Virus record (IMG/VR): IMGVR_UViG_3300024046_000018
Location: 1-32,635 of that record
DNA: 32,635 nt
Source of the DNA: a virus
Taxonomy: Duplodnaviria; Caudoviricetes
Strand: one strand, 5' to 3'
Positions 1,215 to 31,122 of this stretch are shown here, in pieces. Under the pieces are notes generated by a model. The model saw only the letters and a list, made by a program, of their open reading frames with translations, made no database searches and was not told where the DNA came from. Numbering within the stretch: the first letter of the stretch is position 1; every line of letters starts with the position of its first letter. Made by a program: the position numbers and the translations under genes.

Positions 1215-1345
1215 TGCGCTCGCTCGCCTGGATCGGTCTTGTCCTCGCCTTCGCCACCCTGGCCGCCCTGGTGCTGGCCGATGACGGCATGACGGCCTGC
1301 CAGACCGCCCATTCTTTCGGGGTGTGCCATGACACCATCCACTAA
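1211..1345 (+). CDS. Small membrane/exported peptide (44 aa)
   Basis: ATG 1211 overlaps the ParB stop. Hydrophobic N-terminus (MMRSLAWIGLVLAFATLAALVLA) then a Cys/His-containing tail. Fills the gap before MuA. Confidence 0.6.
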   Translation: MMRSLAWIGLVLAFATLAALVLADDGMTACQTAHSFGVCHDTIH

Positions 1346-3251
1346 GTGGTTTTCACTCGAACAGGCGGCGCTTGCCGGCGATCCGGCGATGCCGGGAACA
1401 GTGCGCGGCTGGGCCAAGATCGCCAGCGCCGAGGGCTGGCGCGACCGCGATGGCCGGGCGCGCAAGGAAGGCCGGGGCTGGGTCTATCATCTGACCCTGT
1501 TCCCCGCCTCGACGCAGACGCGGCTGCTGCTGGCCGCGCAACCTGATATTGCCGCGCCGGCCGAACGCAGCCCGCTCTGGCAGCGTTACGACGCGCTGCC
1601 CGAAACACATAAAATCATGTGCTCGGCCCGCCTCAAGGCGGTGGAGAACGTGCAGCGCCTCAAAGCTGCGGGCATGACGCTGGTGGCGGCGGTGGCGCTG
1701 GTGGCCAGCGAGGCGCAGGTGTCCAGCTCCACCTTGCGCAACTGGTTGTCGGCGGTGCGCGGCCACAATCGTGCCGACTGGCTGGCGGCCCTGGCACCGG
1801 ATTACCGGCCGACCGCGCAATTTGCCGAGGTTCACCCGGCCGCCTGGGCGGCCCTGAAATCGGATTACCTGCGCGCTGGCGAGCCCAAGTTTTCGGCCTG
1901 CTATCGCCGCATGGTCGACGCCGCGACGAAACAGGGCTGGGCGCCGATCCCCAGCGAGCGGGCGCTGCGGCGGCGCCTGGAGGCCGAAGTGCCGGCCGCC
2001 GTCATCACGTTGACGCGCAAAGGCGCCGATACCGCCAAGGCCATCTACCCGGCGCAGCGCCGGACCCGCATGAAGCTCAAGGCGATGACGCTGGTGAACA
2101 TCGACGGTCACCGGTTCGACGTGTTCGTGCGGCGGCCCGAGGGCAATGGCGCACCGTTCCGCCCGATGCTGGTCGGCATTCAGGATATCTACTCGGGCAA
2201 GTTCGTCGGCTGGCGCCTGGCCGAGACCGAAAGCCGGGTGTCGGCGCGGCTCGCCATCGGCGACATGGTCGAGCATTTCGGCATCCCCGAGCACATGATC
2301 CTCGACAACGGTCGAGGTTTCGCGAGCAAGTGGATCAGCGGCGGCGCACCGAACCGCTTCCGGTTCAAGGTCCGCGACGACGAGCCGGACGGATTGCTGG
2401 TGCAGCTCGGCGTCAAAATCCACTGGGCGACGCCCTATCACGGCCAGGCCAAGCCTATCGAACGCGCCTGGCAGGATTTCTGCGAGAACATCTCCCGGCA
2501 CCCGTTTTGCGCCGGTGCCTATACCGGCCCCAACCCGATGGCCAAGCCGGAAGACTATGGCTCGCGCGCCATCGAATGGGACGCCTTCAAGGTCTTTGTC
2601 GATGGGATGATCGCCGAGCACAATGCGCGGCCCGGCCGCAACACCGAGACCGCCAAAGGCCGCAGTTTCGACGCGGTCTTTGCCGCCTCGCTGGCCGAGA
2701 ACGACACCATGGTGCGCTGGCCCACGGCCGAGCAGCGCGACCTCTGGCTGTTGATGGCCGAGGAAGTCAGCGCGCAGCGCGGCAATGGCGAAATCCACCT
2801 GCTCGGCAACCGCTACTGGGCGCCCGGCCTGGTCGAGCATGCGGGCCGCAAGGTGCATGTGCGGTTCGACCCCGACGATTTGACCCGGCCGATCAAGGTC
2901 TATGACCGCAAGGGCCGGTTCCTGCTCGCCGCCGGGCTCTACCAGGATGCCGATTTCCTCGACGCCGACGCGGCCCAGCGCCATGCGCGGCTGCGCTCCG
3001 AGTACCAGAAAACCCAGCGCAAGCTGCGCGACCTGCACGTGACGATGAAGCCCGAGCAGCTGGGCGAACTGTACGCGCCGACCCACCAGCCCGACCCGAA
3101 GCCTCAGCGTCCCGCCGTCACGCGGCTGGCGACGCGCGGCAATGCCGCGCTCAAGGCCGAGCAGCAGGGCGATTGGGGGCAGCGCCAGGAGGAAGATTTC
3201 GGGGCCGTGGTTGACATGGCCGCGCAACGGCTCGCCCGCCGCAACGGGTGA
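1329..3251 (+). CDS. MuA-like DDE transposase
   Basis: 640 aa. N-terminal Mu-type DNA-binding domain (WFS...PGTVRG...EGW...GRGWVYH), catalytic D (NIDGH), D (LDNGRGF), E (KPIER), and a Mu transposase C-terminal region (VRFDPDDL). Confidence 0.96.
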   Translation: MTPSTKWFSLEQAALAGDPAMPGTVRGWAKIASAEGWRDRDGRARKEGRGWVYHLTLFPASTQTRLLLAAQPDIAAPAERSPLWQRYDALPETHKIMCSARLKAVENVQRLKAAGMTLVAAVALVASEAQVSSSTLRNWLSAVRGHNRADWLAALAPDYRPTAQFAEVHPAAWAALKSDYLRAGEPKFSACYRRMVDAATKQGWAPIPSERALRRRLEAEVPAAVITLTRKGADTAKAIYPAQRRTRMKLKAMTLVNIDGHRFDVFVRRPEGNGAPFRPMLVGIQDIYSGKFVGWRLAETESRVSARLAIGDMVEHFGIPEHMILDNGRGFASKWISGGAPNRFRFKVRDDEPDGLLVQLGVKIHWATPYHGQAKPIERAWQDFCENISRHPFCAGAYTGPNPMAKPEDYGSRAIEWDAFKVFVDGMIAEHNARPGRNTETAKGRSFDAVFAASLAENDTMVRWPTAEQRDLWLLMAEEVSAQRGNGEIHLLGNRYWAPGLVEHAGRKVHVRFDPDDLTRPIKVYDRKGRFLLAAGLYQDADFLDADAAQRHARLRSEYQKTQRKLRDLHVTMKPEQLGELYAPTHQPDPKPQRPAVTRLATRGNAALKAEQQGDWGQRQEEDFGAVVDMAAQRLARRNG

Positions 3252-3319: not shown

Positions 3320-4306
3320 ATGATTGCGGAAGAAATCACAAGCAAGAACGGCCGCAGCGCCGACGATCTACGGCGGCGCGATGAGCTGCTGATCGAGGTC
3401 GACCGCCTGATGGGCGACCGCAGCTGGAGCAAGGCGGAAGTCGCCCGCCGCGCCGGTATCGGCCACGGCACGTTCAACCAGTGGCACCGGGGCAATTACC
3501 CGGGCCGGTACGACACCATCAACGAAACCATCGCCATCTGGCTCGGCCAGGTCGACGATGTGGCCGAGGTTGCGGCCAGCGTGCCGGTCGGGCCGAGCTA
3601 TCTGCCGCTGGAATTTTCGGTGTCCGTGGAGCGGATGCTGTCGGTGGCGCAGATCATGGCCACCATGGTGATGGTGACCGCCGAGGCCGGGCTGGGCAAG
3701 ACGACCGTGGCCCGGCGCTATGTCGCCACCCATGCCAATAGCTACCTCGTGACGATGTCGCCGCAGACCGGCAAGGTCAACAACATGCTGACCGAAATCG
3801 CCGCCCGGATCGGCGTCGACGAGCGCAGCCCCACCAAGCTGGTCCGCGCCATCGCGCGGCGGCTGCGGCGCCAGGGCGACGGCACGCTGCTGGTGGTGGA
3901 CGAGGCACAGAACCTCTCCGATGACGCCATCAACCAACTGCGCCATTTCGTCGATGAAGAGGATTGCCAGTGCGGCATCGCCATCCTGGGCAACACGGCC
4001 ACCTATGGCCGCTTTAACCAGTGGGGCAAGGGCGACAAATACGGCCAGCTGCACCGTCGCATTTTCAAGCGCATGCGGGTGGAACGGCCCCGGCCCGACG
4101 ATCTGGCCGAGTTTATCGCGGCCTGGGGCATCACCGAGCCCAAGCAGGCTGAATTCTTGCAGGGCGTGGGCATGAAGCCGGGCGCGCTCGGGCAGGTGGA
4201 CATGACCATCAAGCTGGCGCGCATGGTCGCCCAGGGCGCCGGCCGCGACCTGACGCTGGCCGACCTCAAGGCGGCCTGGTCCAACCGCGACGTGGAGTTG
4301 GACTGA
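3320..4306 (+). CDS. MuB-like transposition AAA+ ATPase
   Basis: N-terminal HTH (SKAEVARRAGIGHGTFNQW), Walker A AEAGLGKT, Walker B LLVVDEAQ. Directly follows the transposase. Confidence 0.94.
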   Translation: MIAEEITSKNGRSADDLRRRDELLIEVDRLMGDRSWSKAEVARRAGIGHGTFNQWHRGNYPGRYDTINETIAIWLGQVDDVAEVAASVPVGPSYLPLEFSVSVERMLSVAQIMATMVMVTAEAGLGKTTVARRYVATHANSYLVTMSPQTGKVNNMLTEIAARIGVDERSPTKLVRAIARRLRRQGDGTLLVVDEAQNLSDDAINQLRHFVDEEDCQCGIAILGNTATYGRFNQWGKGDKYGQLHRRIFKRMRVERPRPDDLAEFIAAWGITEPKQAEFLQGVGMKPGALGQVDMTIKLARMVAQGAGRDLTLADLKAAWSNRDVELD

Positions 4307-6449: not shown

Positions 6450-6733
6450 AGCGCGTGCCACTGTCGCCGGCTGTCGCGCGACCGATGCTTTGGGGCCTTG
6501 CGCAGGGCTATTCGGTGCGAGCCGTCGCGCGGGGCCTGGCGATCCGCGAGAGCACGGTGGTGCAGGCCGTGTTCAAATTTGGTCCCGCATGGCTCGCCCT
6601 GCAATTACGGCGCGATTGGCAGGACCGGCGGCAATTGGACGCCGCTCGCCTCGACAATGATCCTCGATATCGGAACTGGTTCCGGGCAGCCACGGGCGCA
6701 GCCTGCCAGTTGGACGCTCTCGGAGAAATGTGA
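6446..6733 (+). CDS. Hypothetical HTH-like protein
   Basis: ATG 6446 (ATGA overlap). LAQGYSVRAVARGLAIRESTV resembles a helix-turn-helix. Confidence 0.65.
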   Translation: MKRVPLSPAVARPMLWGLAQGYSVRAVARGLAIRESTVVQAVFKFGPAWLALQLRRDWQDRRQLDAARLDNDPRYRNWFRAATGAACQLDALGEM

Positions 6734-7344
6734 TGAGCAAATCCATCGCCGCCATCCATGTGGCCAGGAAACAGCTCGGCCTGGACGAGGACACCTATCG
6801 CGCTGCCCTCGTCCAGGTAACCGGGATCAGCTCGGCGGGCGACATGACCGAGGCCCAGCGCCAGCGGGTGCTGGAGCATTTCCGCGAGAAGGGCTTCAAG
6901 GGGCCGTCGACAGGCCGTCGAAAGCCCCTCGAAGGGCGGTTTGCGGCCAAGCTGCAGGCGCTCTGGATTGCCGGGTGGAACCTCGGCCTGGTGCGCGATC
7001 GCGATGACCGGGCGCTGGTGGCCTTCGTGCGCCGCCAGACCGGTATCGACCATGTGCGGTTCCTGCGCCACGGCCAGGACGCCATCAAGGCCATAGAGGC
7101 CCTGAAAGGGTGGCTGGCCCGGGCCGGCGGCGTGGACTGGGACGCGTACCGGGACCCGGCCGATTGCGTGCTGGCGGCGCAGCTGCGGCGCCTCGAGACC
7201 GACCCCGCAGAGGTCGGCTACGCCATGCAGCTGTCGCCCGATGCCGGCGCCGAAACCGTGCGCGCGGTGAGCGGCATGGCGCGACAGACGCTGATGAACC
7301 TGCTGGGCGAGCGCATCCGTGCCTTACCGAGGGCCGAAAAATGA
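6733..7344 (+). CDS. gemA: GemA (Mu gp16/DUF1018) family regulatory protein
   Basis: IHVARKQLGLDEDTYRAAL..VTG..SA.DMT, KLQALW, ALVAFVRRQTG and IEALKGW are characteristic. Lies upstream of the Mor/C gene. Confidence 0.9.
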   Translation: MSKSIAAIHVARKQLGLDEDTYRAALVQVTGISSAGDMTEAQRQRVLEHFREKGFKGPSTGRRKPLEGRFAAKLQALWIAGWNLGLVRDRDDRALVAFVRRQTGIDHVRFLRHGQDAIKAIEALKGWLARAGGVDWDAYRDPADCVLAAQLRRLETDPAEVGYAMQLSPDAGAETVRAVSGMARQTLMNLLGERIRALPRAEK

Positions 7345-7610
7345 GCCGCGTGCGGGTGAGCGACCATGCGTTGCTGCGCTGGCTGGAGCGGGTCGAGGGC
7401 GTTGACCTGGTTGCCCTGCGCCACCGCATCACGAAAGCGGTGCAGCGGGGCGCCGAAGAGCGGGCCGAAGGGGTGCGGATCGACGGCGTCACGTTCAAGC
7501 TCGCCTACAACCCGGGCGAGACGGTGGTAACCACCACTGTTTCGCCCCGCACGCGGCCGCACCTTGCCCAGCCGCGCACCGCGACTGCCGCCGAGGAAGA
7601 GGGCGAATAG
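7341..7610 (+). CDS. Hypothetical protein (SDHALLRWLERV motif)
   Basis: ATG 7341 in ATGA overlap, 89 aa, between gemA and the activator gene. Confidence 0.75.
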   Translation: MSRVRVSDHALLRWLERVEGVDLVALRHRITKAVQRGAEERAEGVRIDGVTFKLAYNPGETVVTTTVSPRTRPHLAQPRTATAAEEEGE

Positions 7611-7629
7611 GGTGGCGGGCGAGCAGCAT

Positions 7630-8001
7630 ATGGCGGCGCTGGACGAGGCCGGGGTAAAAACTCCGGCCCACCTGGCCATCTATGTTTCGGTGCTCGGCAT
7701 CGACGCGGCCATGAACCTCTTTTTGACCATGGGCGGCTCACAGATTTACCTCTCCAAGCGCTCGAGCGACCGCAGCCTGATGGCCCAGGCCATCGGCGCC
7801 GAGGCGGTGGAGCGCCTTGCTGCCCGTGTCGACTATGGTTACGTTAAGGTGCCGCTCGCCCGGCAATGGATCGCCCAGGTCTTGCGTGACCGGGGCAAGA
7901 GCGACAACGAGATTGCCCGCACCATCCGCGCCGATGTGGCCACCGTCCGGCGCTGGCTCGGCTCCCGCCCCCGGGGCGAACAGCTCACCCTGCCACTCTA
8001 G
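7630..8001 (+). CDS. Mor/C-family transcription activator
   Basis: VLGIDAAMNLFLTMGGSQIYL dimerisation-type motif plus C-terminal HTH (SDNEIARTIRADVATVRRWL). Last gene before the lysis genes. GTG 7612 is an alternative start. Confidence 0.82.
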   Translation: MAALDEAGVKTPAHLAIYVSVLGIDAAMNLFLTMGGSQIYLSKRSSDRSLMAQAIGAEAVERLAARVDYGYVKVPLARQWIAQVLRDRGKSDNEIARTIRADVATVRRWLGSRPRGEQLTLPL

Positions 8002-8003
8002 CG

Positions 8004-8056
8004 GACCCGCGCAGCTGCGCCGGTAGATCGGGCCGGCCGAACCCTGACAGATTTGC
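8004..8056 (+). promoter_or_regulatory. Putative late promoter 1 (lysis/packaging operon)
   Basis: GACCCGCGCAGCTGCGC at 8004-8020 and CAGATTTGC at 8048-8056. One of three copies. Confidence 0.75.
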
Positions 8057-9295: not shown

Positions 9296-9516
9296 GCAAG
9301 ACGGGAAATTTCGCGATGGAGCTGGCGGAAGCCCGTGTCGAGCAGGAGCGCGACGCCTCGGTGGCGCGGGTCCAGTCTGGCCTTGGCGCCGAGCATGGGA
9401 GCGCCTTTTGCCTCGACTGCGGCGCGCCGATCCCGGCCGCCCGGCGCCGGGCATTGCCCAGTGCCCGGCGCTGCATTCAATGCGCGCAGCGGCGCGAAAC
9501 GGGGAGCGTGCGCTGA
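9292..9516 (+). CDS. TraR/DksA C4-type zinc-finger protein
   Basis: GTG 9292 (GTGA overlap). CLDCGAPIPAARRRALPSARRCIQC. Confidence 0.88.
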   Translation: MSKTGNFAMELAEARVEQERDASVARVQSGLGAEHGSAFCLDCGAPIPAARRRALPSARRCIQCAQRRETGSVR

Positions 9517-9842
9517 TGCTCCAGGAGCTCCAGTCATTTTCGGGCCTGATCTCCACCCTGCTCAGCATCGGGGCAATCTTTTACACCTGGCTCACCGCGC
9601 GCTCGGCGGCCAATGCAAAAACACTCCAGCAGCACAGCGCTACGCTGAATGCCCATGACCGTCGCATCCAGACGGTCGAGGGGGAGCTGAAGCACCTGCC
9701 CGACAAAGACGCGGTGACCGAGCTCAAGCTGGCCATCGTCGAACTGCGCGGCACCGTGAAGGCCATGGACGCGCAACTGGGGGCGGTGGGGCGAACCGTC
9801 GCCAATATCGACGGCTATCTGCGCAAGGATGATCCGAAGTGA
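9516..9842 (+). CDS. DUF2730 (Mu gp25-like) membrane-anchored coiled-coil protein
   Basis: ATG 9516 (TGATG). N-terminal TM segment, RIQTVEGELKHLPDKD and LAIVELRG. Synteny fits. Confidence 0.8.
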   Translation: MLQELQSFSGLISTLLSIGAIFYTWLTARSAANAKTLQQHSATLNAHDRRIQTVEGELKHLPDKDAVTELKLAIVELRGTVKAMDAQLGAVGRTVANIDGYLRKDDPK

Positions 9843-10135
9843 GCTACGACGAATTCATGGCCGAAAATGCGCGGCTGGTAATGCTCAAGGAGTTGGCCAA
9901 GCAGAATGATGGCCGGCTCAACGAAGTCGTCCTGGTCAAGGTGTTGGACGTGTTCGGCCACCACCGGTCGCGCGAGTGGGTTTGTCAGCAACTCGGTTGG
10001 CTGGCCGAAAAGGGGGCCGTCGAACTCACCCGGGCGGGCACGGTGCTAGTGGCGCGGATCACCCGCATCGGGGTCGACCATGTCGAGACCCGGACCTTTA
10101 TCGACGGCATCGACAAGCCGTCCTTCCGGCCCTGA
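9839..10135 (+). CDS. Mu gp26-like winged-helix protein
   Basis: RLVMLKEL, SREWVCQQLGWLAEKG, ARITRIGVDHV and GIDKPS. Precedes the gp27-like gene. Confidence 0.8.
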   Translation: MSYDEFMAENARLVMLKELAKQNDGRLNEVVLVKVLDVFGHHRSREWVCQQLGWLAEKGAVELTRAGTVLVARITRIGVDHVETRTFIDGIDKPSFRP

Positions 10136-10137
10136 TC

Positions 10138-10728
10138 ATGGCGCGGCCGAAAAAGGATCGTACCGGGCGGGGGCGGCTGTCGCGGCTCGACATGCTGCCC
10201 GAAGAGGCCCAGCCCGACCTAGTCTGGCTCAATGGCGAGCTGCGGGAGGGAAAGCGCCCGCAGAACGAATTGCGCGACGTGTTCAATGCGCGCCTCGCGG
10301 GCCTCGGCATCGAGCCGATCAGCGTAGGCAGCTTTTCGCGCTATTCGGTGCGCAAGGCGATGCAGTTCCGCGAACTGGACGAGCAGATGCGCATTTCGTC
10401 AGAGCTGGTCGACGTCCTGGGCGTCGGTGGCTCGGACAAGATGACCATTGCCCTGGCGGAGCTGATCCGCGTTGCCGGCATCAAGCTGTTGGAGGCCGAG
10501 GGCGGCCAGCTGGCCGCCAAGGACCTGATGGAGCTGGCAAAGGCCAACCAGGCCGCCACAGGCGCGCAGAAGCAATCGGCCGAGTACCGGCGGGCGCTGG
10601 AGCGAGAGTTTGAGCAGAAAATGCTGGATGGAGCCGACCGGGCCGAGGTTGTCGCGCGGGAGGCCGGCGTGTCTGCCGAGACGATTGCGCTTCTGCGCCG
10701 CGAATTTCTTGGGGTCCGGTCTCCATGA
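10138..10728 (+). CDS. Mu gp27-like (DUF3486) putative small terminase
   Basis: GRGRLSRLDMLPEEA, ISVGSFSRY and GVSAETIALLRREFLGV. Immediately upstream of the large terminase. Confidence 0.85.
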   Translation: MARPKKDRTGRGRLSRLDMLPEEAQPDLVWLNGELREGKRPQNELRDVFNARLAGLGIEPISVGSFSRYSVRKAMQFRELDEQMRISSELVDVLGVGGSDKMTIALAELIRVAGIKLLEAEGGQLAAKDLMELAKANQAATGAQKQSAEYRRALEREFEQKMLDGADRAEVVAREAGVSAETIALLRREFLGVRSP

Positions 10729-12362
10729 GCGTAGAAGCCGATCTTTTGCCGACCGCCGACCAGGCACCGCCACTTTCGCCCATAGACCTGGTCATGCCGG
10801 GCATGCTGCCAGCCGAGGGGCACGACCCGCTGGGCGACGGCGTGTTGATGAAACACCAGATCGATTGGTGTGCCGACCACTCACCCCTGAAGCTGGCGGT
10901 GAAGGGGCGGCGCACGGGGTTTACCTACGCCGAAGCTCTCGACAGCACTCTCATCGCAATGGCCGCGAAAAGCGCCGGCGGCGAGACCACCTACTACATC
11001 GGCGACACGAAGGAAAAAGGCCTTGAGTTCGTGGCCGTCTGCGCTCGCTTTGCGCGCACGGTGGCCAAGGAACTGCTGAAGGTGGAAGAGTTCGTCTTCG
11101 AGGACACACTTCCGGACGGCAGCACGAGGGGCATCGCTGCCTATCGCATCCGCTTTTCATCCGGCCACCACATCGTTGGGTTGTCGAGCAATCCCGCCAA
11201 TATTCGAGGGCTTCAGGGCCGTGTCGTGATCGACGAGGCGGCCTTCCACCGCAACGTCGCGGCGGTGATAGACGCCTGCAACGCGCTGTTGATTTGGGGC
11301 GGCACGATCCGCATCATCTCGACCCATAACGGCAATCTCAACCCGTTCAACGAGCTGATTAAGGAAATTGAGCAGGGCATCTACGACTATTCGATCCATC
11401 GGGCGACCTTCGACGACGCCGTTGCCAACGGCCTTTACGAGAGGGTCTGTCTGATCCGAGGCTGGACGCCGACGATCCAAGGCAAAGAAGAGTGGTATCG
11501 GCGCGTCAGGCGGTCCTATGGCAGCCGACAAGAGGCGATGCGCGAGGAGCTGGATGCGATACCACGCGAGGGCGAAGGTGTCCTGTTGCCTCTGGCCTGG
11601 ATCGAAGCGTGCAGCACTGCCGAATACAAGGTTGCGCGCTGGGAACCGCCGCATCCAAACTTTGTGGATTTGCCTGAGGAAGTCCGCCGCGCCAGCATGC
11701 TGGAGTGGTTGGAGCGCGAGGCGGCGCCCATTTTGCGCCGCTTCGGCAACCAGGACATTACCTGGTATCTGGGCGGCGACTTCGCCATGCGACAGGACCG
11801 GAGCGCCTATCCGATAGGGTTTGTCTCCCAGGACCTCAAGCGGCACATACCTCTGCTGATTGAGCTTCGCGCCTGCCCCTATGACCAACAAAAGCAAGTG
11901 CTTTACTGGCTGGTCTCGACGGTGGAGAGCATGGGGCACAGCTTCAAGAAGGGCGTGCTCGACGCAAATGGCAACGGGATGGCGCTGGCCCAGGAGGCTC
12001 GACAGAAGTTCCGCGCCGAGCGCATCGTGGAGCTGATGCCCACCGATGCCTGGTTGCGCGAACACACACCGCGCTTCCGCGCTGCGTTTGAAGACAAGAC
12101 AATGCTGATCCCGGCTGACCTGGACGTGCGCAATGACCTGCGCCAGCTCCAGATCAGAGGTGGCGTGGCCAAGGTTCCCAGCGACGTGCGCACGAACGGC
12201 TCGGATGGCGGAAAGCGGCACGGTGATGCCGCTGTCTCGATCCTCAACTTTCACGCAGCAACCTATGGCGAAGATCTGGCGCCCTGGCGCCCGCTCAATG
12301 CCCAGCCCGGCCAGAAGCCCAAACAAACGCAAACGCTTGACGATATGTGGATACCGGCATGA
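10725..12362 (+). CDS. Large terminase, Mu gp28-like
   Basis: KGRRTGFTYAEA Walker A variant, LSSNPANIRGLQG, VVIDEAAF Walker B, ISTHNG, and nuclease motifs GGDFA, DANGNG, HGDAA. Confidence 0.93.
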   Translation: MSVEADLLPTADQAPPLSPIDLVMPGMLPAEGHDPLGDGVLMKHQIDWCADHSPLKLAVKGRRTGFTYAEALDSTLIAMAAKSAGGETTYYIGDTKEKGLEFVAVCARFARTVAKELLKVEEFVFEDTLPDGSTRGIAAYRIRFSSGHHIVGLSSNPANIRGLQGRVVIDEAAFHRNVAAVIDACNALLIWGGTIRIISTHNGNLNPFNELIKEIEQGIYDYSIHRATFDDAVANGLYERVCLIRGWTPTIQGKEEWYRRVRRSYGSRQEAMREELDAIPREGEGVLLPLAWIEACSTAEYKVARWEPPHPNFVDLPEEVRRASMLEWLEREAAPILRRFGNQDITWYLGGDFAMRQDRSAYPIGFVSQDLKRHIPLLIELRACPYDQQKQVLYWLVSTVESMGHSFKKGVLDANGNGMALAQEARQKFRAERIVELMPTDAWLREHTPRFRAAFEDKTMLIPADLDVRNDLRQLQIRGGVAKVPSDVRTNGSDGGKRHGDAAVSILNFHAATYGEDLAPWRPLNAQPGQKPKQTQTLDDMWIPA

Positions 12363-14431
12363 TGGACCGCTTGAACTGGTTTCAGAAGGCGGCGCTGAAA
12401 GCGTTGCAAATTCGGTGGCTGCCGGGCAGCCAGGCGATGAACGCGGCGATGCGGTCGAGCAGGATCAACTATCGCCAGGAGGTCGGCGACTTCATCGACG
12501 CCTCGGTAGTGACGGCGCCGATCCAGTGGGTGCAGCGCGCGGTGCCCGAAGCTCGACTGACCGTTTATCAGCGTTCGGCCGACGGCAGTCGGAAAGAACG
12601 CGCCGACCACCCGGCCCTGGCGCTGATCCAGCGGCCGAACCCGTTTTACGGCGACCTGACGCTGTTCGCCGGCACGATCTTTTCGTATCTCACCGATGGC
12701 AATGGCTACTGGATCAAGGTGCGCAACAGCTATGGCCGGGCGAAAGAATATTGGTACACGCCGCACTGGATGCTCGAGCCGAAGGGGTCTGATGACGGTG
12801 GCGAGTTCATCACCCATTACGACTACCGGCCGGGGGGTGGCCATGGAACGATCCGCCTCGATCCGAGCGACGTCGTGCATTTCCGCCACGGCATCAATCC
12901 GCGCGACCCGCGAAAGGGCCTGTCGCCGCTGGCCGGGGTGATCCCCGAAATCTACATGGATATCGAAAGCTCGAATTTCGTGTCGTCGCTGCTCAAGAAC
13001 ATGGGCGTTCCCGGCATGGTGGTGTCGCCCAAGACCGGCGGCGTGGTGCCGAGCGATGACGTCGCGGCGACGAAGGCATGGCTTAAACAGGCCTTTGGCG
13101 GATCGCGCCGGGGCGAACCGCTGGTGATGAGCGCGCCGACTGACGTCTATCAGTATGGTTTCAACCCGCAGCAGATGAACATGTCGGAAGCGCGCGACAT
13201 TGCCGAAGAGCGGGTTTGCGCCTGTATCGGGACACCCGCGGCTGTGGTGGGGTTCGGCGCCGGCCTGCAATCGACCAAGGTCGGCGCCACCATGGCGGAG
13301 CTGGTCAAGCTGGCCTGGCGCAATGGGGTGTTGCCGGTGCTGGGGGCGATGGCCGATGAAATGGACCGCTCGGTGCTGACCGATTTCGGCAATGTTGCCG
13401 GGCTGTCCATGGGCTACGACACGTCCGAGGTCGCTGCTCTGCAGGAGGATCGCAACCAGGCGGCGACCGCCTGGAACACGATGGTGGGCGGTGGTTGGGC
13501 CGAGGTGGCCGAGGGCCGCGAAGGCATGAACCTGCCGGTCGACGACAGCCACCATATTTTCCTCAGGCCCGCCATGTCGCTGGAAGTGCCGGCGGGCGGC
13601 CATAAAGCGTCGCCCGGCCCCGTCGAGGCCAAGGCCGTGGCCGGCCGCGAGCGGCGGCTGGCCGGGCTGACGTTCGTGCGGGCGATACAACGCCTGGAAG
13701 AGCCGTTCGCCAGGGCGATGAACAAGCGTCTCACGGGCTTTTTCGGTGAGCTGCGCAAGGCGGCGCGTGAAGCGGCGCTGCCCGTGCTCGAGGCCGACTA
13801 TGTCGTGCCCCCCAAGGATGCCGGCCCATATGAGGAAAAGGCCGACGAGCTGCTGGTGGAGACGATCCTCGAGCGCCTGGGGATCGATGCGCACTGGACA
13901 ACGTTCAAGGGCCTTTACGAGGCTCACTACCTCGACGTGGCCAGGGCGGTGAGCGAGGCGGCGAGGCTCGCCGGGATCAGTGGCAGCCTGCCCGATCCGG
14001 TCGCCCGCACCATTGTGGCCGCCGGCGGCCGCCGGGCCGGCCTTATCGACCTGCGGCAGCAGTCCCGTTCGGCGCTGTTCGACGCCATCGCGGTTGGCCG
14101 GTCGGAGGGCGAAGGCGCCGGCGCCCTGGCGGGGCGCATTGCCCGGCACATCGAGGCTGGCCCCTGGGCCAGCGTCGAGGCCCGCGCACTGACCATTGCG
14201 CGCACCGAAACCAAGTATGCGCAGAACGTCTCCACCATCGAGCGGGCCAAGGCGGCGGGCGTGGCCAGCTTCATCGTATTCGACGGCCGGTTGGGGCCGG
14301 GCCGCTCGAAGCCGGACCATATCGCCCGGGACGGCTCCATCGTGACGGCCGACGAGGCCAACCGCATGGCGGCTGACGAGCACCCCAACGGCACCCTGAG
14401 CTTTGCACCCTATTTCGGCGAGGACGACTGA
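12359..14431 (+). CDS. HK97-type portal protein fused to a C-terminal MuF/SPP1 gp7-like head morphogenesis domain
   Basis: Portal motifs HPALALIQRPNP, YLTDGNGYW, DVVHFRH..GLSPL, KNMGVPG and EGREGMNLP. C-terminal RALTIARTET ... HIARDG ... EHPNGT is MuF-like. Confidence 0.88.
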   Translation: MMDRLNWFQKAALKALQIRWLPGSQAMNAAMRSSRINYRQEVGDFIDASVVTAPIQWVQRAVPEARLTVYQRSADGSRKERADHPALALIQRPNPFYGDLTLFAGTIFSYLTDGNGYWIKVRNSYGRAKEYWYTPHWMLEPKGSDDGGEFITHYDYRPGGGHGTIRLDPSDVVHFRHGINPRDPRKGLSPLAGVIPEIYMDIESSNFVSSLLKNMGVPGMVVSPKTGGVVPSDDVAATKAWLKQAFGGSRRGEPLVMSAPTDVYQYGFNPQQMNMSEARDIAEERVCACIGTPAAVVGFGAGLQSTKVGATMAELVKLAWRNGVLPVLGAMADEMDRSVLTDFGNVAGLSMGYDTSEVAALQEDRNQAATAWNTMVGGGWAEVAEGREGMNLPVDDSHHIFLRPAMSLEVPAGGHKASPGPVEAKAVAGRERRLAGLTFVRAIQRLEEPFARAMNKRLTGFFGELRKAAREAALPVLEADYVVPPKDAGPYEEKADELLVETILERLGIDAHWTTFKGLYEAHYLDVARAVSEAARLAGISGSLPDPVARTIVAAGGRRAGLIDLRQQSRSALFDAIAVGRSEGEGAGALAGRIARHIEAGPWASVEARALTIARTETKYAQNVSTIERAKAAGVASFIVFDGRLGPGRSKPDHIARDGSIVTADEANRMAADEHPNGTLSFAPYFGEDD

Positions 14432-14432
14432 C

Positions 14433-15167
14433 ATGCAGCTGGAAACCAAGAACCTCAACATCGAAAGCATGAACGAGGAAGGTCGTGGCCTGGCGCGCCT
14501 GGCGCTGCTCTCGGCCGTCGACAGCGATGGCGACACCTATGTGCCGGGCGCCTTCGGGTGGAAGGAGCACGGCGAGCAGTGGGCACCGATGCTGCCGGCT
14601 CACGATCGGCACGCGCTGCCGCTGGGCAAGGTGCGGGTGTTCGAAAAGGATGGCGCGGCCTATGCCGACCTGCACCTCAACCTCGACACGGTCGCCGGCC
14701 GCGAGTGGCACAGCCACCTCAAGTTCGACCTAAAAACGGGGAAGCCGGCGCAGGAATGGTCCTACGGCTATGGCGTGGTCGACGCGGAAAGCGAGCAGCG
14801 CGGTGGCGACCGCGTGCGCGTGCTCAAGCAGGTCGACGTGCACGAGGTCTCGCCGGTGGTGCGCGGCGCCGGCTTTGGAACCGCCACGGTGTCGATGAAG
14901 TCGCATGGCAATTTTGCCGAGCAGATCGACGCTGTCATTGCCGAGCTGGACGATATCGTGGCGCGCGCCGGCGGCATCGCCACGCTGCGGGCCGGCCAGG
15001 GGCGCGACATGAGCAAGGCGCGGCTGGAGCAGTTGGCAGCGGTCAAGGCCAAGCTCGACGAGATGCTACGTACCGATCCGGCGCCAGCCGCCGATGGGGC
15101 GCTGGCCGAGAAGATGGCCGCCGAATTCCTCACCCGCGCGGCACGCCGCCGCCTCGGCATCGGCTGA
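14433..15167 (+). CDS. HK97-family prohead protease
   Basis: VDSDGDTYVPGAF, PMLPAHD..PLGK (His), EWSYGY (Ser) and HEVSPVVRGA. Confidence 0.9.
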   Translation: MQLETKNLNIESMNEEGRGLARLALLSAVDSDGDTYVPGAFGWKEHGEQWAPMLPAHDRHALPLGKVRVFEKDGAAYADLHLNLDTVAGREWHSHLKFDLKTGKPAQEWSYGYGVVDAESEQRGGDRVRVLKQVDVHEVSPVVRGAGFGTATVSMKSHGNFAEQIDAVIAELDDIVARAGGIATLRAGQGRDMSKARLEQLAAVKAKLDEMLRTDPAPAADGALAEKMAAEFLTRAARRRLGIG

Positions 15168-15247
15168 ACTCAGGGGCGGCGCCAGGGCTGCGTGGCGTGC
15201 CTTTCGGCTGCACGCCTAGCCAAACGGTGTGTTTAGGCGCTCCAGAC

Positions 15248-15265
15248 CTGTCAAATGCCTGTCAA
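15248..15265 (+). repeat. 11-bp-period direct repeat CTGTCAA-ATGC-CTGTCAA (Pho-box-like)
   Basis: CCTGTCAAAT occurs at 15247-15256 and 15258-15267 in the protease-capsid intergenic region. Confidence 0.6.
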
Positions 15266-15369
15266 ATTCGCGGACAACGCCGGCCGGGGGTCGCAGATTG
15301 CGGACCCGGCCCCGAAACTGGTAATAACCGGTGGCGGCCACTTTGGCGTGGTCGCGTCGACCAGTGCCC

Positions 15370-15421
15370 GACCCGCGCAACTGCGCGGATATCCCAGCAC
15401 CCTCTCCATCCGTAGTTTTGC
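15370..15421 (+). promoter_or_regulatory. Putative late promoter 2 (major capsid operon)
   Basis: GACCCGCGCAACTGCGC at 15370-15386 and TAGTTTTGC at 15413-15421. Confidence 0.78.
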
Positions 15422-15510
15422 CCTACTGGCCCGCGCCGACGCGGGAAGCTGTACGCATGGCCTTAGCGCGGACGCTGAGCCCAAGTGCAATTCGACATGG
15501 AGGGGCTTAA

Positions 15511-16830
15511 ATGTCCACGCTGAAGGAAGTCCGCGAAAAGGTCGCGGCAAAGCAGGATGAGCTTGGCAAGGTGTTCACCGAGGCCAAGACCGATGGCGGC
15601 TACGATTTCCAGAAGGTCAGCAAGGAAACGATCAAATCGGTCCTGGGCGACGACCTGAAAGACACGATCGATATCGTCAAGCGCATCAATGAGCGCGACG
15701 CCGAGCTGAACGAGCTGGTCGCCGAAATGGAGGGCCTGGAGGCAGCCGAGGAGGCGGCCAAGAGCTATTCCGACCGCGAAAAACCGCGCCGCAACTTTGC
15801 GCTGCCGGGCGCCAAGGCGGAGCACGAGCGCCCCCGCGTCAAGTCGCTGGGTGAGATGCTGGCCGAAGAAAAGGCGTTCAAGGACTGGCTGGAGCGCGGC
15901 AGTCCCAGTGGCATCGACTTTTCCTACGACATGCTGCCGTCCGACCTGTTGGCCAAGGCCATGCAGGTGGAGACGTTCGGCTCCAAGGCGCTGATGGCCA
16001 CCTCGGCGGGTTATGCGCCCGAGAGCGTGCGGCTCCCGGGGTTCGTCGATGCGACGACCCGGCCGTTGCAGCTGCTCGACATCGTTCCCGCCGCGCAGAC
16101 CGGCCAGGCCACCGTCAAATATATGGAGGAAACCACCCGCACGCATGGCGCGGCGGAGACGGCCGAAGGCAGCACCTACGCCGAATCGACCTTTGCGTTT
16201 ACCGAACGCAGCTCGGACGTGCGCAAGATCACCGATAGCCTGCCGGTGACCGACGAGCAGCTGGAAGACGTGCCGATGGTGTCGGGCTATATCAACGGCC
16301 GGCTGCTTTTCGGGGTGCGCCAGAAGCTCGATACGCAGACCTATGTCGGCAATGGCTCCGCGCCCAACCTGCGCGGCATCATCAATACGGTCGGCATCCA
16401 GAGCCTGGCCAAGGCCGGTGGCGACCCGGTGCCCGATGCCTTTTTCAAGGCCATGACCAAGGTGCGCACCGTCGGTCGGGCGATCCCGACACACCATGTC
16501 ATGCACCCCGAAGACTGGCAGGACATCCGCCTGCTGCGGACCAACGATGGCGTCTATATCTGGGGGGCGCCCAGCGAGACCGGGCCGGATCGGCTGTGGG
16601 GGCTGCCCGTGGTGCAGAACGAGGCGCGGGCGGCGGGTTCCGGCCTGGTCGGGTCGTTCCAGCCTTCGTGGATTTCGCTGTTCGAGCGCTCCGGCGTCGA
16701 TATCCAGGTGGGCTATGTCGACGCGCAGTTCGGCCAGGGGAGGCGCACCGTGCGCGCCGACATGCGCGCGGCCGTGGTGCTGTTCCGGCCCGCCGCGTTC
16801 TGTGACGTGACCGGGCTCAGCGCCGACTAG
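15511..16830 (+). CDS. HK97-family major capsid protein
   Basis: GGAGGGG RBS. N-terminal coiled-coil (delta-domain-like), then AAETAEG, VRKITDSLPVTDEQLED, GNGSAPNLRGI, VMHPEDW..IRL, RLWGLPVV and FRPAAF. Confidence 0.94.
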   Translation: MSTLKEVREKVAAKQDELGKVFTEAKTDGGYDFQKVSKETIKSVLGDDLKDTIDIVKRINERDAELNELVAEMEGLEAAEEAAKSYSDREKPRRNFALPGAKAEHERPRVKSLGEMLAEEKAFKDWLERGSPSGIDFSYDMLPSDLLAKAMQVETFGSKALMATSAGYAPESVRLPGFVDATTRPLQLLDIVPAAQTGQATVKYMEETTRTHGAAETAEGSTYAESTFAFTERSSDVRKITDSLPVTDEQLEDVPMVSGYINGRLLFGVRQKLDTQTYVGNGSAPNLRGIINTVGIQSLAKAGGDPVPDAFFKAMTKVRTVGRAIPTHHVMHPEDWQDIRLLRTNDGVYIWGAPSETGPDRLWGLPVVQNEARAAGSGLVGSFQPSWISLFERSGVDIQVGYVDAQFGQGRRTVRADMRAAVVLFRPAAFCDVTGLSAD

Positions 16831-16852
16831 CGGCCGGATCGGCCGTCGCATC

Positions 16853-16893
16853 AGGATCGGCCCGGCCGGGTCGGGCCGATCCTTTCCCGTTTT
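16853..16893 (+). terminator. Hairpin/probable leaky terminator after the capsid gene
   Basis: Perfect 12-bp stem AGGATCGGCCCG (16853-16864)/CGGGCCGATCCT (16872-16883), followed by TTCCCGTTTT. Confidence 0.65.
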
Positions 16894-16907
16894 CCCAGGA
16901 GGATACC

Positions 16908-18103: not shown

Positions 18104-18682
18104 ATGATGGATGCAGTCATGGCCCTGATCGATCGGGTGAAAGAGCGCACCGGCGCCGAGCTGTCCGACACCGAGCTGACGGCGATGATTGCCGGCATCA
18201 GCGCCGAAATCGACGGCCGCTATGGACCGGCCGGCCCGATTGAGCTGACCATGGGCGATCCTCAGGACCGGGCGCGCTGGCGGCGGACGCTGATGCTGCC
18301 CCGCCCGCTCGACCCGGCCGAGCCGGTGAGCGTGGTAGAGATCGAGCCGAGCAATCGGGGGGCGGCGAGCGCCGAGCTGGTGCTGGCCGATGCCGATTAC
18401 CGCGTGCTGCACGGCGGTCGCACCCTGCAACGGCTCTCCGACGGGCCGCATGGCCAGGTCTATTGGGCGCCGTTCGTGCGCATCAGCTTCTCCCCGCTGG
18501 GCGACCAGGCGGCGCGCGACGAACTGGTCATCAAGATCATGCAGCTCGACCTTTCCTATCGCGGCGGGCTCAAGAGCGAGCGGGCCGGCGACTATCAGTT
18601 CACGCTCGGCGCCGACGCCGCAACCGAGCGGGAGAAGCTGCTGGGCAGCTTGTCGACCGGCAACCGCGTGACCATGGCGTAG
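18104..18682 (+). CDS. Head-tail adaptor protein
   Basis: Position after the head genes and C-terminal LKSERAGDYQFT motif. Start may be ATG 18119. Confidence 0.72.
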   Translation: MMDAVMALIDRVKERTGAELSDTELTAMIAGISAEIDGRYGPAGPIELTMGDPQDRARWRRTLMLPRPLDPAEPVSVVEIEPSNRGAASAELVLADADYRVLHGGRTLQRLSDGPHGQVYWAPFVRISFSPLGDQAARDELVIKIMQLDLSYRGGLKSERAGDYQFTLGADAATEREKLLGSLSTGNRVTMA

Positions 18683-18693
18683 GGGCGGCTGCG

Positions 18694-19038
18694 ATGATTT
18701 CCGGCCGCCTCACCATGCGCGCGATCATGTTGCGCAACAGCGCCACCGGCACCGATCCGCGCGGCCATCCATTGCCGCCGGTGTGGACGGCCAACGGCAC
18801 GCTGCGGTGCTTCGCCTGGTCGAATGCCAGCCGTGAAATCGTCGATGGCGACAAGACGGCCATGGTCGAGGACATGCGGGCGCTGTTCGCCCTGGGCGGC
18901 GATATCACCGAGGGCGACCGCATCAGCGGCATAACGGATCGGGCGGGCAATGTGCTGATCGCGGGACCGCTGGAGGTGGACGGGCCGGTGCAGCGCAAGC
19001 ATACGCACCTGGAGGCCGCCTTGAAGCGGATCGGCTGA
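18694..19038 (+). CDS. Head closure/stopper protein
   Basis: 114 aa from ATG 18694. GTDPRGHP, DITEGDRI and HLEAALKRI. Synteny fits. Confidence 0.72.
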   Translation: MISGRLTMRAIMLRNSATGTDPRGHPLPPVWTANGTLRCFAWSNASREIVDGDKTAMVEDMRALFALGGDITEGDRISGITDRAGNVLIAGPLEVDGPVQRKHTHLEAALKRIG

Positions 19039-19190
19039 TGGCAGCGCCGCAAACCTGCCGATGCTGCGGCGGCACGGGGACGGTGCCCGATGCCGATGGC
19101 AAGCCCCGCCCGTGCAGCCGCTGCCAGGTGGAGAAATTCCACGCCTGGGCAGCATCCCGCTACCCGGCCAAACGGGTTGAGGCCGGCTGA
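19038..19190 (+). CDS. 50-aa zinc-finger microprotein (not in ORF track)
   Basis: MAAPQTCRCCGGTGTVPDADGKPRPCSRCQVEKFHAWAASRYPAKRVEAG. TGATG overlaps at both ends. CxxCxGxG...CxxC motif. Confidence 0.75.
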   Translation: MAAPQTCRCCGGTGTVPDADGKPRPCSRCQVEKFHAWAASRYPAKRVEAG

Positions 19191-19432
19191 TGGGCAAGGT
19201 CGTCGACCTGGTCGCCCGGCTGGCGGCTGCCAATGCGCCAGATGCCGACTGTGTCCGCCAGGACCAGGACGGCCGGCCGCTCTATCGGTATGCGCTCGAA
19301 TATCGCATGGGCGACGCCAGCTGGTCGGCCGAGCTGTGGGCCTATTCGTTCGACGATGCCGAGCAGCGCGTGGCGGCAATGCGGGATAGCCTGGTCGTGC
19401 TCGGCCAGCTCAAAGCCGTCATCGGGCCCTAG
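19190..19432 (+). CDS. Small hypothetical protein
   Basis: 80 aa, coupled to the zinc-finger gene, stops 2 nt before the next start. Confidence 0.72.
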   Translation: MGKVVDLVARLAAANAPDADCVRQDQDGRPLYRYALEYRMGDASWSAELWAYSFDDAEQRVAAMRDSLVVLGQLKAVIGP

Positions 19433-19434
19433 AC

Positions 19435-19878
19435 GTGGCGGGCAAGACGAAATCCCTCAAATGGTCCGGCAAGGCCGTCTCGGAAAAAATGCGCAAGGCC
19501 CAGATCGTCGGGGTCAACCGCACCATGGCGGCCTGCGTGGTCGAGGCGAAGCGAAACCACCCCTGGCAAAATCGCACCGGCCTCCTCGAGGGCGGCATCG
19601 ACATTGCCGATTATGCCGCCCCCTATGCAAAAGCCGGGCTCTCCGGCGTCAAGGGCACCTGGGGCGTGCGCGACATGGTGCAGGCGCAAATCCTGGAAAA
19701 AGGCGGGACGATCAGGCCGGTGCGCGCCAAGGCGCTGGCGATCCCCCAGGCCGATGGCAGCCTGCGCTTCGTCAGCTCGGTGACCATTCCGCCCTATCCG
19801 TATCTGCGGCCGGCGGCCGACAAGGAATATGTCAGGCTGGGAGAGCGCATCCGCGCAGCGTTCGAACGGGCCGGCTAG
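19435..19878 (+). CDS. Neck/tail-completion protein (HK97 gp10-like)
   Basis: Basic protein with HPWQNRTGLLEGGI, AQILEKGGTI and PYPYLRPA. Confidence 0.75.
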   Translation: MAGKTKSLKWSGKAVSEKMRKAQIVGVNRTMAACVVEAKRNHPWQNRTGLLEGGIDIADYAAPYAKAGLSGVKGTWGVRDMVQAQILEKGGTIRPVRAKALAIPQADGSLRFVSSVTIPPYPYLRPAADKEYVRLGERIRAAFERAG

Positions 19879-19885
19879 CCGAGCT

Positions 19886-19937
19886 GACCCGCGCACCTGC
19901 GCTGATATTACAGGGTCACGCGCGCGCATAGCTTTGC
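19886..19937 (+). promoter_or_regulatory. Putative late promoter 3 (tail operon)
   Basis: GACCCGCGCACCTGCGC at 19886-19902 and TAGCTTTGC at 19929-19937. Confidence 0.78.
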
Positions 19938-28968: not shown

Positions 28969-31122
28969 ATGACCGACCCCTACAATCTCGGCACCGTCAC
29001 CGTGGGCAACGGCGACACCACCGTAACCGGCACTGGCACCTTCTGGGCCGGCAAGGTGCGCAAGAACGACCTGTTCATGGACCCGGCGCAGGGCCTGTTT
29101 GCGCGCATCGTCGCCGATCCGGTGAGCAATACCGAAATCACCATCAATGCCTGGCCGGGCGAGGCACTGGAAGATGCCGCCTACGAGATCATCCCGGTGT
29201 CCGATGGCATCGACATCTCGGGCCGGCTGCGCGACCTTCTCGCCAAAATGTCGGCCATCGAGGCCAATGGCCGGGGCCTTTTCTACCGGTTCTCCGATCA
29301 AATTGAAGATGCCGATCCTGGTGCTGGCCGGCTGCGGCTCAACGCTATTGATCCGGTCGGTGCCACGGCGGTTTACATCGACAACGAGGACGCCAATGGC
29401 GCCGCGGCGGCTGCTGAAATCGACACCTGGGCTGGCAGCACGTCGTTGATCAAAGGCGTGCTCTGGCTGCGCAGTGTGGCCGATCCGTCCAGCGCGCGCG
29501 CTTATGCGCTCACGGGCGCGGTGGTCGATGGCACGGGCTATCGCAAGCTGACCGTTGAGCATATCGGCGGCACCGGTGGTTTCGCCGCCGACGAGGCTCT
29601 GATGGTGGCCTTCTCCCGGGCCGGTGATCAGGGAGACGCCTACCAGACCGACGCCACCGTCGACGACATGGATGGACTGACGGCGTACGACAGCGAGGCT
29701 GTCGGCTTCCGGGTCTTCGTGCGCGACCTCGGGGGCGCCTACGACAACCGTTCCGGCGTCGTGATCAAGGCGGCGTCGGCATGGGACGCAACCGCGATTT
29801 ACACCGGCCCCACGGGCAGCAAGGGCGACAGAGGCGATAAGGGCTGGTCACCGATGTTTGCCGGCGTCGCGGACGGCGAGCGGCGCGTTGAAGTGCTGAT
29901 CGGCTATGTTGGTGGCGAGGGCACCCCGCCCACCGAACATGTGGGCGAGTACCGAAAAGGTGACGGCACCTATACGACCAATATTGCCGAGGCGGTCGAC
30001 TATCGTGGCCCGCCCGGCCGCAACGGTGCGGGCACGGTGGCCGAGCTGGTGCCGGGCAGAGGTATTCTAATCAACGCGACCGACCCGACCCGGCCGGAGA
30101 TCTCGACCGATCAGACGGCCGACGAAACGCAGAATTTCTATGCCACGCTGGCCCTGGAGCAGGCCGAGGACCGTTCGGATGGTCCGGTGATGGCCGGCCC
30201 CGATGGCAATGGGCTTTTTGATGGCTTCAACGCACTCACCTATGTGGACACCGCAGCCGCCTCGGGCCTTGATACGTCCGAGGCGGGGCTGCTCAAGCCG
30301 CTACCTCTGGTCACGGCGATGAGCATCAGCTTCACCCACGATTCGCCCAACTATGGGGGCTACAATCTGCGTTTTCGTATTCCGGCCTCAAAGCTGAGTG
30401 GTAAGGGTGACCAAATTAAGCTGAGGCTGGCAGGGGTAACCACGGGGGCGGCCCTCGTCCTCTCATCCGTCTATGTGGGGCACAAGGCCAGTTCCGGCAA
30501 CGTCTGGGATTTCGACGGCGGTCAGAAGCAGATCAAGGTTGGCGGCAACGCCGGCTTCTCGGTGCCGGTCAACGGCGACGTCGAAACAGACTGGCTCGAC
30601 TTCGACTTTGACGACAGTCGCGATCTGATCGTCGCCATGCACTGCACATCGGGCGACCTTCGGATCGGAACGATCGCCAGTGGCGGGATAGGCGGCTCTT
30701 TTTCGACCAAGATGGGGGCGGACGAGGGAGGTGTGTCGGCGCCGGGAGGATACTCCACATCGTCCACCTATGATCGCCTAACCTGTTATCAGGTCCAGGT
30801 CCGCACCAGTGCGATGAGCGTGCGCAGCTCGGCCCTGACGCTGTCGGCGGAGCCCGGTTGGGCGCGGCTCTACTTCATCGCCGATCTGCAGGACGCCACG
30901 CTCAACACCGATTTGCTGGTCTCGGTGAGCCGCGATGGCGACGACTTCACCGCCCTCACGGCCACTCGTCTCTATCAGCGGCCGGATGGGTCGGGCGTTT
31001 TCGCCACGGACAGGACCGATCTGACGAGTGATCCCGGCTCGATCGGCCGCTGGCGGATCGAAACGGACAATGCCACGCAGCCAAAAATTCTGGCCATCGG
31101 CGTGATGTTCGGAGTGAATTGA
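28969..31122 (+). CDS. Tail fibre protein
   Basis: N-terminal YNLGTVTVGNGDTTVTGTGTFW, DADPGAGRLRLN domain, collagen-like GPTGSKGDRGDKG, and modular C-terminus. Confidence 0.82.
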   Translation: MTDPYNLGTVTVGNGDTTVTGTGTFWAGKVRKNDLFMDPAQGLFARIVADPVSNTEITINAWPGEALEDAAYEIIPVSDGIDISGRLRDLLAKMSAIEANGRGLFYRFSDQIEDADPGAGRLRLNAIDPVGATAVYIDNEDANGAAAAAEIDTWAGSTSLIKGVLWLRSVADPSSARAYALTGAVVDGTGYRKLTVEHIGGTGGFAADEALMVAFSRAGDQGDAYQTDATVDDMDGLTAYDSEAVGFRVFVRDLGGAYDNRSGVVIKAASAWDATAIYTGPTGSKGDRGDKGWSPMFAGVADGERRVEVLIGYVGGEGTPPTEHVGEYRKGDGTYTTNIAEAVDYRGPPGRNGAGTVAELVPGRGILINATDPTRPEISTDQTADETQNFYATLALEQAEDRSDGPVMAGPDGNGLFDGFNALTYVDTAAASGLDTSEAGLLKPLPLVTAMSISFTHDSPNYGGYNLRFRIPASKLSGKGDQIKLRLAGVTTGAALVLSSVYVGHKASSGNVWDFDGGQKQIKVGGNAGFSVPVNGDVETDWLDFDFDDSRDLIVAMHCTSGDLRIGTIASGGIGGSFSTKMGADEGGVSAPGGYSTSSTYDRLTCYQVQVRTSAMSVRSSALTLSAEPGWARLYFIADLQDATLNTDLLVSVSRDGDDFTALTATRLYQRPDGSGVFATDRTDLTSDPGSIGRWRIETDNATQPKILAIGVMFGVN

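Follow-up and report, generated by a model that had tools for sequence, protein, structure and literature searches.

How does a Mu-type packaging terminase come to stand directly in front of an HK97-type head? The question is raised by a stretch of 32,635 nucleotides (nt), hereafter the window, which is the provirus record IMGVR_UViG_3300024046_000018 of IMG/VR (Caudoviricetes; estimated completeness 82%). In it, MuA/MuB/GemA/Mor genes and genes similar to Mu gp25-28 run, through an ATGA overlap of terL and the portal gene read in the sequence at 12359-12362, into an HK97-type portal, protease and delta-bearing capsid gene. This arrangement was described in a first-pass annotation made from the sequence alone, and its genes and coordinates hold in Pfam and PHROGs scans of 45 window open reading frames (ORFs). 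The annotation explained it by a head swapped exactly at the terminase-portal junction; the comparisons below place the boundary inside the gene of the large terminase subunit (TerL). We consider it probable that the window represents an alphaproteobacterial lineage of Mu-like prophages, whose HK97-type portal-MuF/protease/capsid head probably came from a non-transposable phage in one acquisition, and whose TerL likely docks on this foreign portal via a C-terminal tail of approximately 25 residues, which remains linked to the portal gene when the terminase body is replaced.

The exchange boundary lies inside the terminase gene

TerL sequences were collected from 348 loci, 35 of which were left out (20 lacked a downstream portal and 6 the end motif, 5 were open and 4 short). 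The set kept contains 246 unique pairs: 101 TerLs with an HK97-type portal and 145 with DUF935 portals. The features at the junction in the window are as follows.

10725..12284, + strand: TerL body of the Mu gp28 clade, ATPase and nuclease, the exchangeable part (36% identical to Mu gp28, 72% to alphaproteobacterial TerLs)
12285..12296, + strand: TerL tail motif 1, W-R-P-L (W-x-P in 99/101 TerLs before HK97-type portals, 0/145 before DUF935 portals)
12348..12362, + strand: TerL tail motif 2, W-I-P-A-stop (100/101 against 0/145 in the same sets), overlapping the portal start and its probable ribosome-binding site
12359..14431, + strand: HK97-family portal of 690 residues with a fused MuF/SPP1-gp7-like domain (PF04860 at residues 49-391, PF04233 at 577-677, phrog_2662)

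The whole terL gene spans 10725-12362, and its product is 47% identical to POA1180. The alphaproteobacterial TerLs that match it at 72% precede DUF935 portals, and the match stops at residue 513-516. Breakpoints in DNA were compared by blastn in 9 phage pairs with differing TerLs. In L071 and L072 the terL bodies cannot be aligned, while the flanking DNA on either side is 92% identical and identity returns 73 nt before the stop; in L133/L212 it returns 72 nt before the stop, and in five other pairs at -30 to -175 relative to it. The reciprocal case is L311/L222, where the TerL core is 95% shared, the portal 30%, and DNA similarity halts at the first tail codon. The boundary of exchange is situated approximately 24 codons before the terL stop.

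Several terminase clades share one slot

The slot before this portal holds a TerL from one of at least three clades, which are 22-31% identical to each other. The B3 clade accounts for 68 of the 101 TerLs with HK97-type portals, a third clade (approximately 50% identical to vB_PeaS-P1) for 12, and the Mu clade of the window for a minority of 21. Two further outlying TerL types, in L083 and L601, occur with the same head. The L601 gene (3349-4920, in a transposable locus) encodes a tail that is just W-R-P-L, as in non-transposable relatives, and this locus joins L083 on the portal tree. The window TerL has no TerL_ATPase or TerL_nuclease match, in contrast to L469 and L472, and a PDB sequence search with it returned spurious designed-repeat matches only.

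The incongruence between TerL and portal trees that the first-pass annotation proposed to look for is present: TerL clades interleave on a portal tree of 88 rows, changing 19 times, where the minimum is 2 and the shuffled mean 26.7. An approximately unbiased (AU) test on 30 rows rejects keeping the Mu-clade rows as a single group (p-AU 6.6e-6). In the TerL phylogeny, those Mu-clade TerLs that occur with this head group together (support 85) within alphaproteobacterial users of DUF935 portals. This single clade, together with its scatter over the portal tree, suggests that this TerL type probably acquired the tail a single time and was afterwards passed on horizontally. The pairing in the window appears to reflect a later TerL exchange.

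The terminase tail follows the portal

The tails of all three clades share the consensus W-[RK]-P-[LMV], a linker and L-D-x-x-W-I-P, with the spacing W-[RK]-P-x(15-24)-W-I-P. Motif 1 is located 17-26 codons upstream of motif 2 and 60-80 nt before the stop. Its codons vary synonymously: Arg or Lys is written as CGN or AAG, and all the CGN Arg codons and all four Pro codons are used. The Ile of motif 2 is encoded by ATA, ATC or ATT (98/101), and persists in TerLs whose portal gene has its next in-frame start more than 100 nt away. The linker varies, and both Trp motifs persist across inserts of 60-70 residues in 10 TerLs. Motif 1 is likely a portal contact. The inserts themselves, found between the Trp motifs in 10/101 tails (L001, L025, L033, L056, L058, L059, L064, L067, L070 and L332), are conserved and by eye resemble a winged helix.

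Partial rank correlations, computed over pairs that are not independent, reach 0.68 for tail and portal and 0.03 for tail and TerL core; within DUF935 phages the values are 0.52 and 0.18. Among the latter, the best tail from another TerL clade comes with the same portal subtype in 91/107 cases, with 13.6 expected, and the subtypes have distinct tails at the protein level. The terminal segment of TerL is co-inherited with the portal, a correlative property expected of a portal-specificity segment of the lambda/T3 type.

In the mechanism that we propose, gp27 would recognise the phage left end in integrated copies, and TerL would, as in Mu, cut in host DNA and package a headful. The tail, made up of W-R-P-L, a flexible linker and L-D-x-x-W-I-P-A, would bind the portal clip. 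Recombination between gp27 and the tail could install any transposable-phage TerL body—of the Mu, B3 or PeaS-P1 clade—with the motor-portal contact intact, because the tail is proposed to carry the portal specificity. According to excerpts of the respective papers, TerL C-termini contact the portal in T3, lambda, SPP1 and P22 (PMC13595956), the portal clip is the landing site of the motor (10.1101/2023.02.24.529869), and in Mu the adaptor C-terminus contributes a strand to two clips (PMC11915804).

Alternative explanations

Several points weigh against a docking tail with a fixed boundary. Within the HK97-type group, the correlation between tail similarity and portal similarity is weak (0.13, with the same dependence between pairs). 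Pairs between the B and C clades regain identity only at -137 to -175, and in the two pairs that include the window, divergence is too high for blastn to locate the break (similarity returns at +106). The tail motifs were defined after the data were seen, the loci come from baited searches and are related to each other, so that counts are not independent events, and the 30 rows of the AU test were hand-picked, its group being named after the clade changes on the portal tree had been counted. A Trp in the last 15 residues also occurs in 67/145 TerLs before DUF935 portals and in 28/30 of the outgroup. Motif 2 overlaps the probable Shine-Dalgarno site of the portal (TGGAT, with the start 10-16 nt on, in 70/101), and non-transposable relatives often encode W-R as TGG AGG or TGG AGA beside the portal start. 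The W-R-P of the outgroup (10/30 tails) is confounded with the ribosome-binding site, and we have downgraded it as proof of an inherited docking motif because of this Shine-Dalgarno overlap. The main rival builds on such overlaps: the tail would track the portal by linkage and translational coupling, as it holds the ribosome-binding site that crossovers must spare, and the true contact would be made by a promiscuous nuclease domain. A motor map of HK97, with the nuclease ring under the clip and limited contact, agrees with it (excerpts of 10.1101/2023.02.24.529869). We nevertheless regard this as unlikely, since the distant motif 1 is kept in 99/101 TerLs with free codon choice while the linker around it varies and takes inserts, the Ile of motif 2 is maintained by three codons even where the next portal start is far off, and the tails of DUF935 subtypes differ as proteins.

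The tail might instead bind another partner that travels with the portal, such as the MuF domain fused to it or the capsid protein that surrounds the vertex. These candidates are indistinguishable in the data, because portal, MuF domain, protease and capsid are co-inherited; the published C-terminal contacts, however, are to the portal (PMC13595956, in excerpt), and the terminal W motif is found in outgroup relatives both with and without the MuF fusion, which makes another partner very improbable. A single swap exactly at the terL-portal junction, joining Mu gp28 to an HK97 head, is suggested by the ATGA overlap and by the single clade of Mu-type TerLs with this head, indicating that this TerL type met the head once. 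We give this version hardly any credence, since the last 25 codons of terL travel with the portal, two other TerL clades and the outlying types of L083 and L601 use the same head, and the Mu-clade TerLs occupy dispersed positions on the portal tree. The chance of an assembly chimera or defective prophage, a concern of the first-pass annotation, is negligible, and for the architecture it is refuted. The record is 82% complete, and the two 40,747-bp contigs that cover 9500-16900 without differences may both be the source of the window itself; yet the same TerL-portal pairing recurs in isolate genomes (Maricaulis maris DSM 4734, Sphingomonas sp. ERG5) and a closed Sphingopyxis chromosome, the ORFs are intact throughout the window, and 62/62 informative related loci are transposable.

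A docking tail that stays with the portal could also be part of a wider scheme in transposable phages, which we put forward tentatively and hold to be rather doubtful: the TerL body may be a plug-in cassette and a tail of 25-40 residues the whole portal address, with TerLs of five types freely combinable with portals of six or more classes. An undescribed alphaproteobacterial family would use this scheme to apply Mu-style host-end packaging to an HK97-type head, and host immunity that detects terminases would be behind the high rate of swapping. Avs-type sensors are an example of such immunity.

The head module and its origin

The remaining parts of the head and neck are encoded downstream of the portal.

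14433..15167, + strand: prohead protease, Peptidase_S78 (Pfam, family profiles)
15511..16830, + strand: major capsid protein with an N-terminal delta-like region, 439 residues (PF05065, TIGR01554, HK97 gp5)
18104..19878, + strand: neck genes (adaptor, stopper, Ne1-like), from tblastn matches in the non-transposable outgroup loci L594 and L545 and syntenic labels in StopSmel

The portal is of the HK97 type by its match to Phage_portal PF04860 (E 4.5e-53, 181 bits over a cut-off of 39), while it scores under the TIGR01537 equivalog cut-off. phrog_2662 spans residues 35-636, the MuF/SPP1-gp7-like match at 577-677 is under the Pfam cut-off, and the PDB matches of the portal profile are the RcGTA and HK97 portals. 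The fold is assigned from sequence searches and a monomer model with a predicted local distance difference test (pLDDT) score of 84, in which the clip region is of low confidence. The first-pass annotation was right about the HK97 type of the portal but overlooked the MuF fusion, and its capsid ORF start is corrected to 15511. The profile check that it suggested assigns portal, protease and capsid to PF04860, Peptidase_S78 and Phage_capsid: Portal_Mu has no match in the Pfam scan of window proteins, Mu gp29, gpI and gpT have no tblastn match anywhere in the window, and a profile comparison of the portal with Mu gp29 gives a probability of 0.6%. The core Mu head (DUF935 portal, protease I, gpT) is thereby absent from the window, and its S78 protease and Phage_capsid protein with a delta domain are those of an HK97-type head. 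The HK97-type cos packaging set (HK97-type TerL, P27-like TerS, HNH) is not found in the window either, with no HNH among the 45 proteins scanned by Pfam. The closest solved structure to the capsid is HK97 gp5, delta region included (residues 58-432, E 1.8e-35). The capsid has a Tyr aligned to a Tyr of the HK97 structure 2fs3, which we take to be the K169Y mutant, so that the aligned residue would be the K169 cross-link position; covalent chainmail would then be unlikely.

In a portal tree with 21 transposable and 56 other members, all transposable portals fall into a single clade (support 99), whose sister is L502/L545 (support 82). Non-transposable relatives share the portal-MuF fusion and the neck genes, and carry DnaB, RusA and other terminases. 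The MuF domain is not a leftover Mu gpF: this possibility is rejected because the non-transposable relatives carry the same fusion (31/106 outgroup loci match, against 0/145 DUF935 loci). The simplest reading is that head and neck were gained in one acquisition from a non-transposable phage, the root and donor being inferred; the neck genes probably came together with the head. A cos-type HK97 donor is not supported, as the sister rows L502/L545 as well as L577 and L593 have other TerL families. The generalisation that HK97-type head sets usually pair with their own terminases applies here in part, for the nearest non-transposable relatives do not all use HK97-type terminases.

Portal-baited scans yielded 31 genome loci and 53 viral loci (84, some of them duplicates), and the named hosts of the genome loci are nearly all Alphaproteobacteria. 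The proposed co-occurrence is confirmed: gp27 plus MuA, MuB or GemA is found in 62/62 loci with at least 8.9 kb of DNA upstream of the portal. Portal matches above 60% occur in 3/50,697 phage records—StopSmel, Aussie and Mwe-Yong1112-1—all encoding transposase, MuB, GemA and Mor; StopSmel and Aussie have the window-type head at 61-63% identity. The supposed under-described transposable lineage is therefore real, but GenBank isolates already exist, with TerLs of the B3 clade (75% identical to the phage B3 TerL). Mwe-Yong1112-1 (L087) is labelled a Microcystis phage, though its relatives here are alphaproteobacterial prophages; its record looks rearranged, with capsid and tail genes on the opposite strand from portal and protease, and an integrase is present. 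In Stappia albiluteola F7233, a prophage region of this lineage occurs on four contigs (L011, L012, L021, L026), which fits replicative transposition.

Late and early genes

Exact copies of a dyad, GACCCGCGCAnCTGCGC, are found at three positions in the window. Their promoter-like function is inferred.

8004..8020, + strand: late-promoter-like dyad before the lysis genes (motif search)
15370..15386, + strand: late-promoter-like dyad before the capsid gene (motif search)
19886..19902, + strand: late-promoter-like dyad before the tail genes (motif search)

With up to 2 mismatches there are 6 matches in the window versus 0.25 expected, which is no independent test, as the pattern was drawn from these sites. 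In related loci the motif precedes the capsid gene in 26/64, follows Mor in 19/36, precedes the tail gene in 23/54 and the protease in 0/70, against a background of 44/1760 random windows; the foreign head appears domesticated, as the first-pass annotation had argued from this motif. The dyad may be a Mor/C-type promoter. Between the late motif and the start of the capsid gene there is a conserved leader, CCCGCGCCGACGCGGG...GCGCGGACG (window 15430-15500, and L002, L005, L040, L085 and L086), which could be an RNA structure.

The replication, regulation and early packaging genes are those of a Mu-like phage: the MuA DDE transposase and MuB ATPase were identified by Pfam, and GemA, Mor/C and the gp27 small terminase by Pfam and PHROGs.

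1329..3251, + strand: MuA transposase (Pfam DDE_2, E 2.5e-46; HTH_Tnp_Mu_1/2, Mu-transpos_C)
3320..4306, + strand: MuB ATPase (Pfam Phage-MuB_C, AAA_22)
6730..7344, + strand: GemA (Pfam PF06252)
7564..8001, + strand: Mor/C-like late activator (phrog_836)
9516..9842, + strand: Mu gp25-like, DUF2730 (Pfam)
9839..10135, + strand: Mu gp26-like (phrog_436, NF050184)
10138..10728, + strand: Mu gp27-like small terminase (PF11985, phrog_426)

Lysis genes are present upstream of the gp25-like gene in the same scans. The tail operon closes with a gene for a Kelch-repeat protein (31119-32039), which follows the fibre gene and has a below-average GC content. The genomes of StopSmel and Aussie have the ends TGT...ACA; in the 82%-complete window, neither genome end was located. 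The coordinates of both 40,747-bp contigs imply an end near window position 29880 and a reach of approximately 10.9 kb past the left end of the window.

Significance

The component parts, the principle of C-terminal docking and the head architecture in GenBank isolates are already known. Literature searches turned up no description of transposable phages with an HK97-type head, nor of the tail rule in such phages, although isolate announcements, a 2023 ISME J survey of transposable phages or supplements may describe it; the available portions of PMC8705779, PMC10783043, PMC11318856, PMC12429752 and PMC9503304 hold no description of such a head in these phages. Surveys baited with Mu or B3 portals (as in the available part of PMC8705779) would record a missing core gene for this lineage. 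TerL trees serve to cluster phages and predict packaging (PMC10783043, in excerpt), and here they split near-identical transposable phages. How TerL grips the portal is poorly resolved, with few atomic structures (PMC13595956, in excerpt). The lineage offers a natural series of swaps and culturable Sinorhizobium meliloti phages in which one short peptide is testable; if the portal address resides wholly in the tail, tail sequences would be a natural code from which motor-portal compatibility could be predicted and tested.

Comparison with known systems

The closest isolates, the Sinorhizobium phages StopSmel (OR786374) and Aussie (OR786373) together with Mwe-Yong1112-1 (MZ436628), share with the window transposase A/B, GemA, Mor and gp25-27, the portal-MuF fusion (61-66%), the capsid (61-75%), the tail tube (58-64%), the protease and the TerL tail. 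They differ by a B3-clade TerL, 23-24% identical to the Mu-gp28-clade TerL of the window; conversely, none of the best 50 of 120 phage records matching the window TerL has this head. Mu and B3, which we take to be Saltoviridae-type transposable phages, share the replication and regulation genes, the gp25-28 block and TerL clades, but have Portal_Mu/DUF935, a separate gpF, gpG, protease I/Z and gpT, none of which is found in the window. Portal and protease are counted as core across 22 reference genera of Mu-like phages (PMC8705779, in excerpt).

HK97 has in common with the window the Phage_portal family, the S78 protease and a capsid with a delta region; the window portal is under the TIGR01537 cut-off and MuF-fused, and comes without an HK97-type TerL, P27-like TerS or HNH. 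Non-transposable phages with phrog_2662-type heads (L545, L502, L594, L577) are alike in portal-MuF fusion, protease, capsid and neck genes, and their TerLs end in W-R-P-[LV]; they differ in having DnaB, RusA, a methylase and other TerS/TerL families, no gp27, and portals 35-46% identical. In lambda/21 hybrids, the C-terminal segment of TerL is reported to set portal specificity. The prohead-binding C-terminal regions of lambda gpA and T3 gp19 are likewise short TerL segments carrying portal specificity (PMC13595956, in excerpt). Compared with lambda and T3, the case seen here in sequences is one of natural and repeated exchange among TerL clades that are 22-31% identical, with a bipartite Trp motif in the tail.

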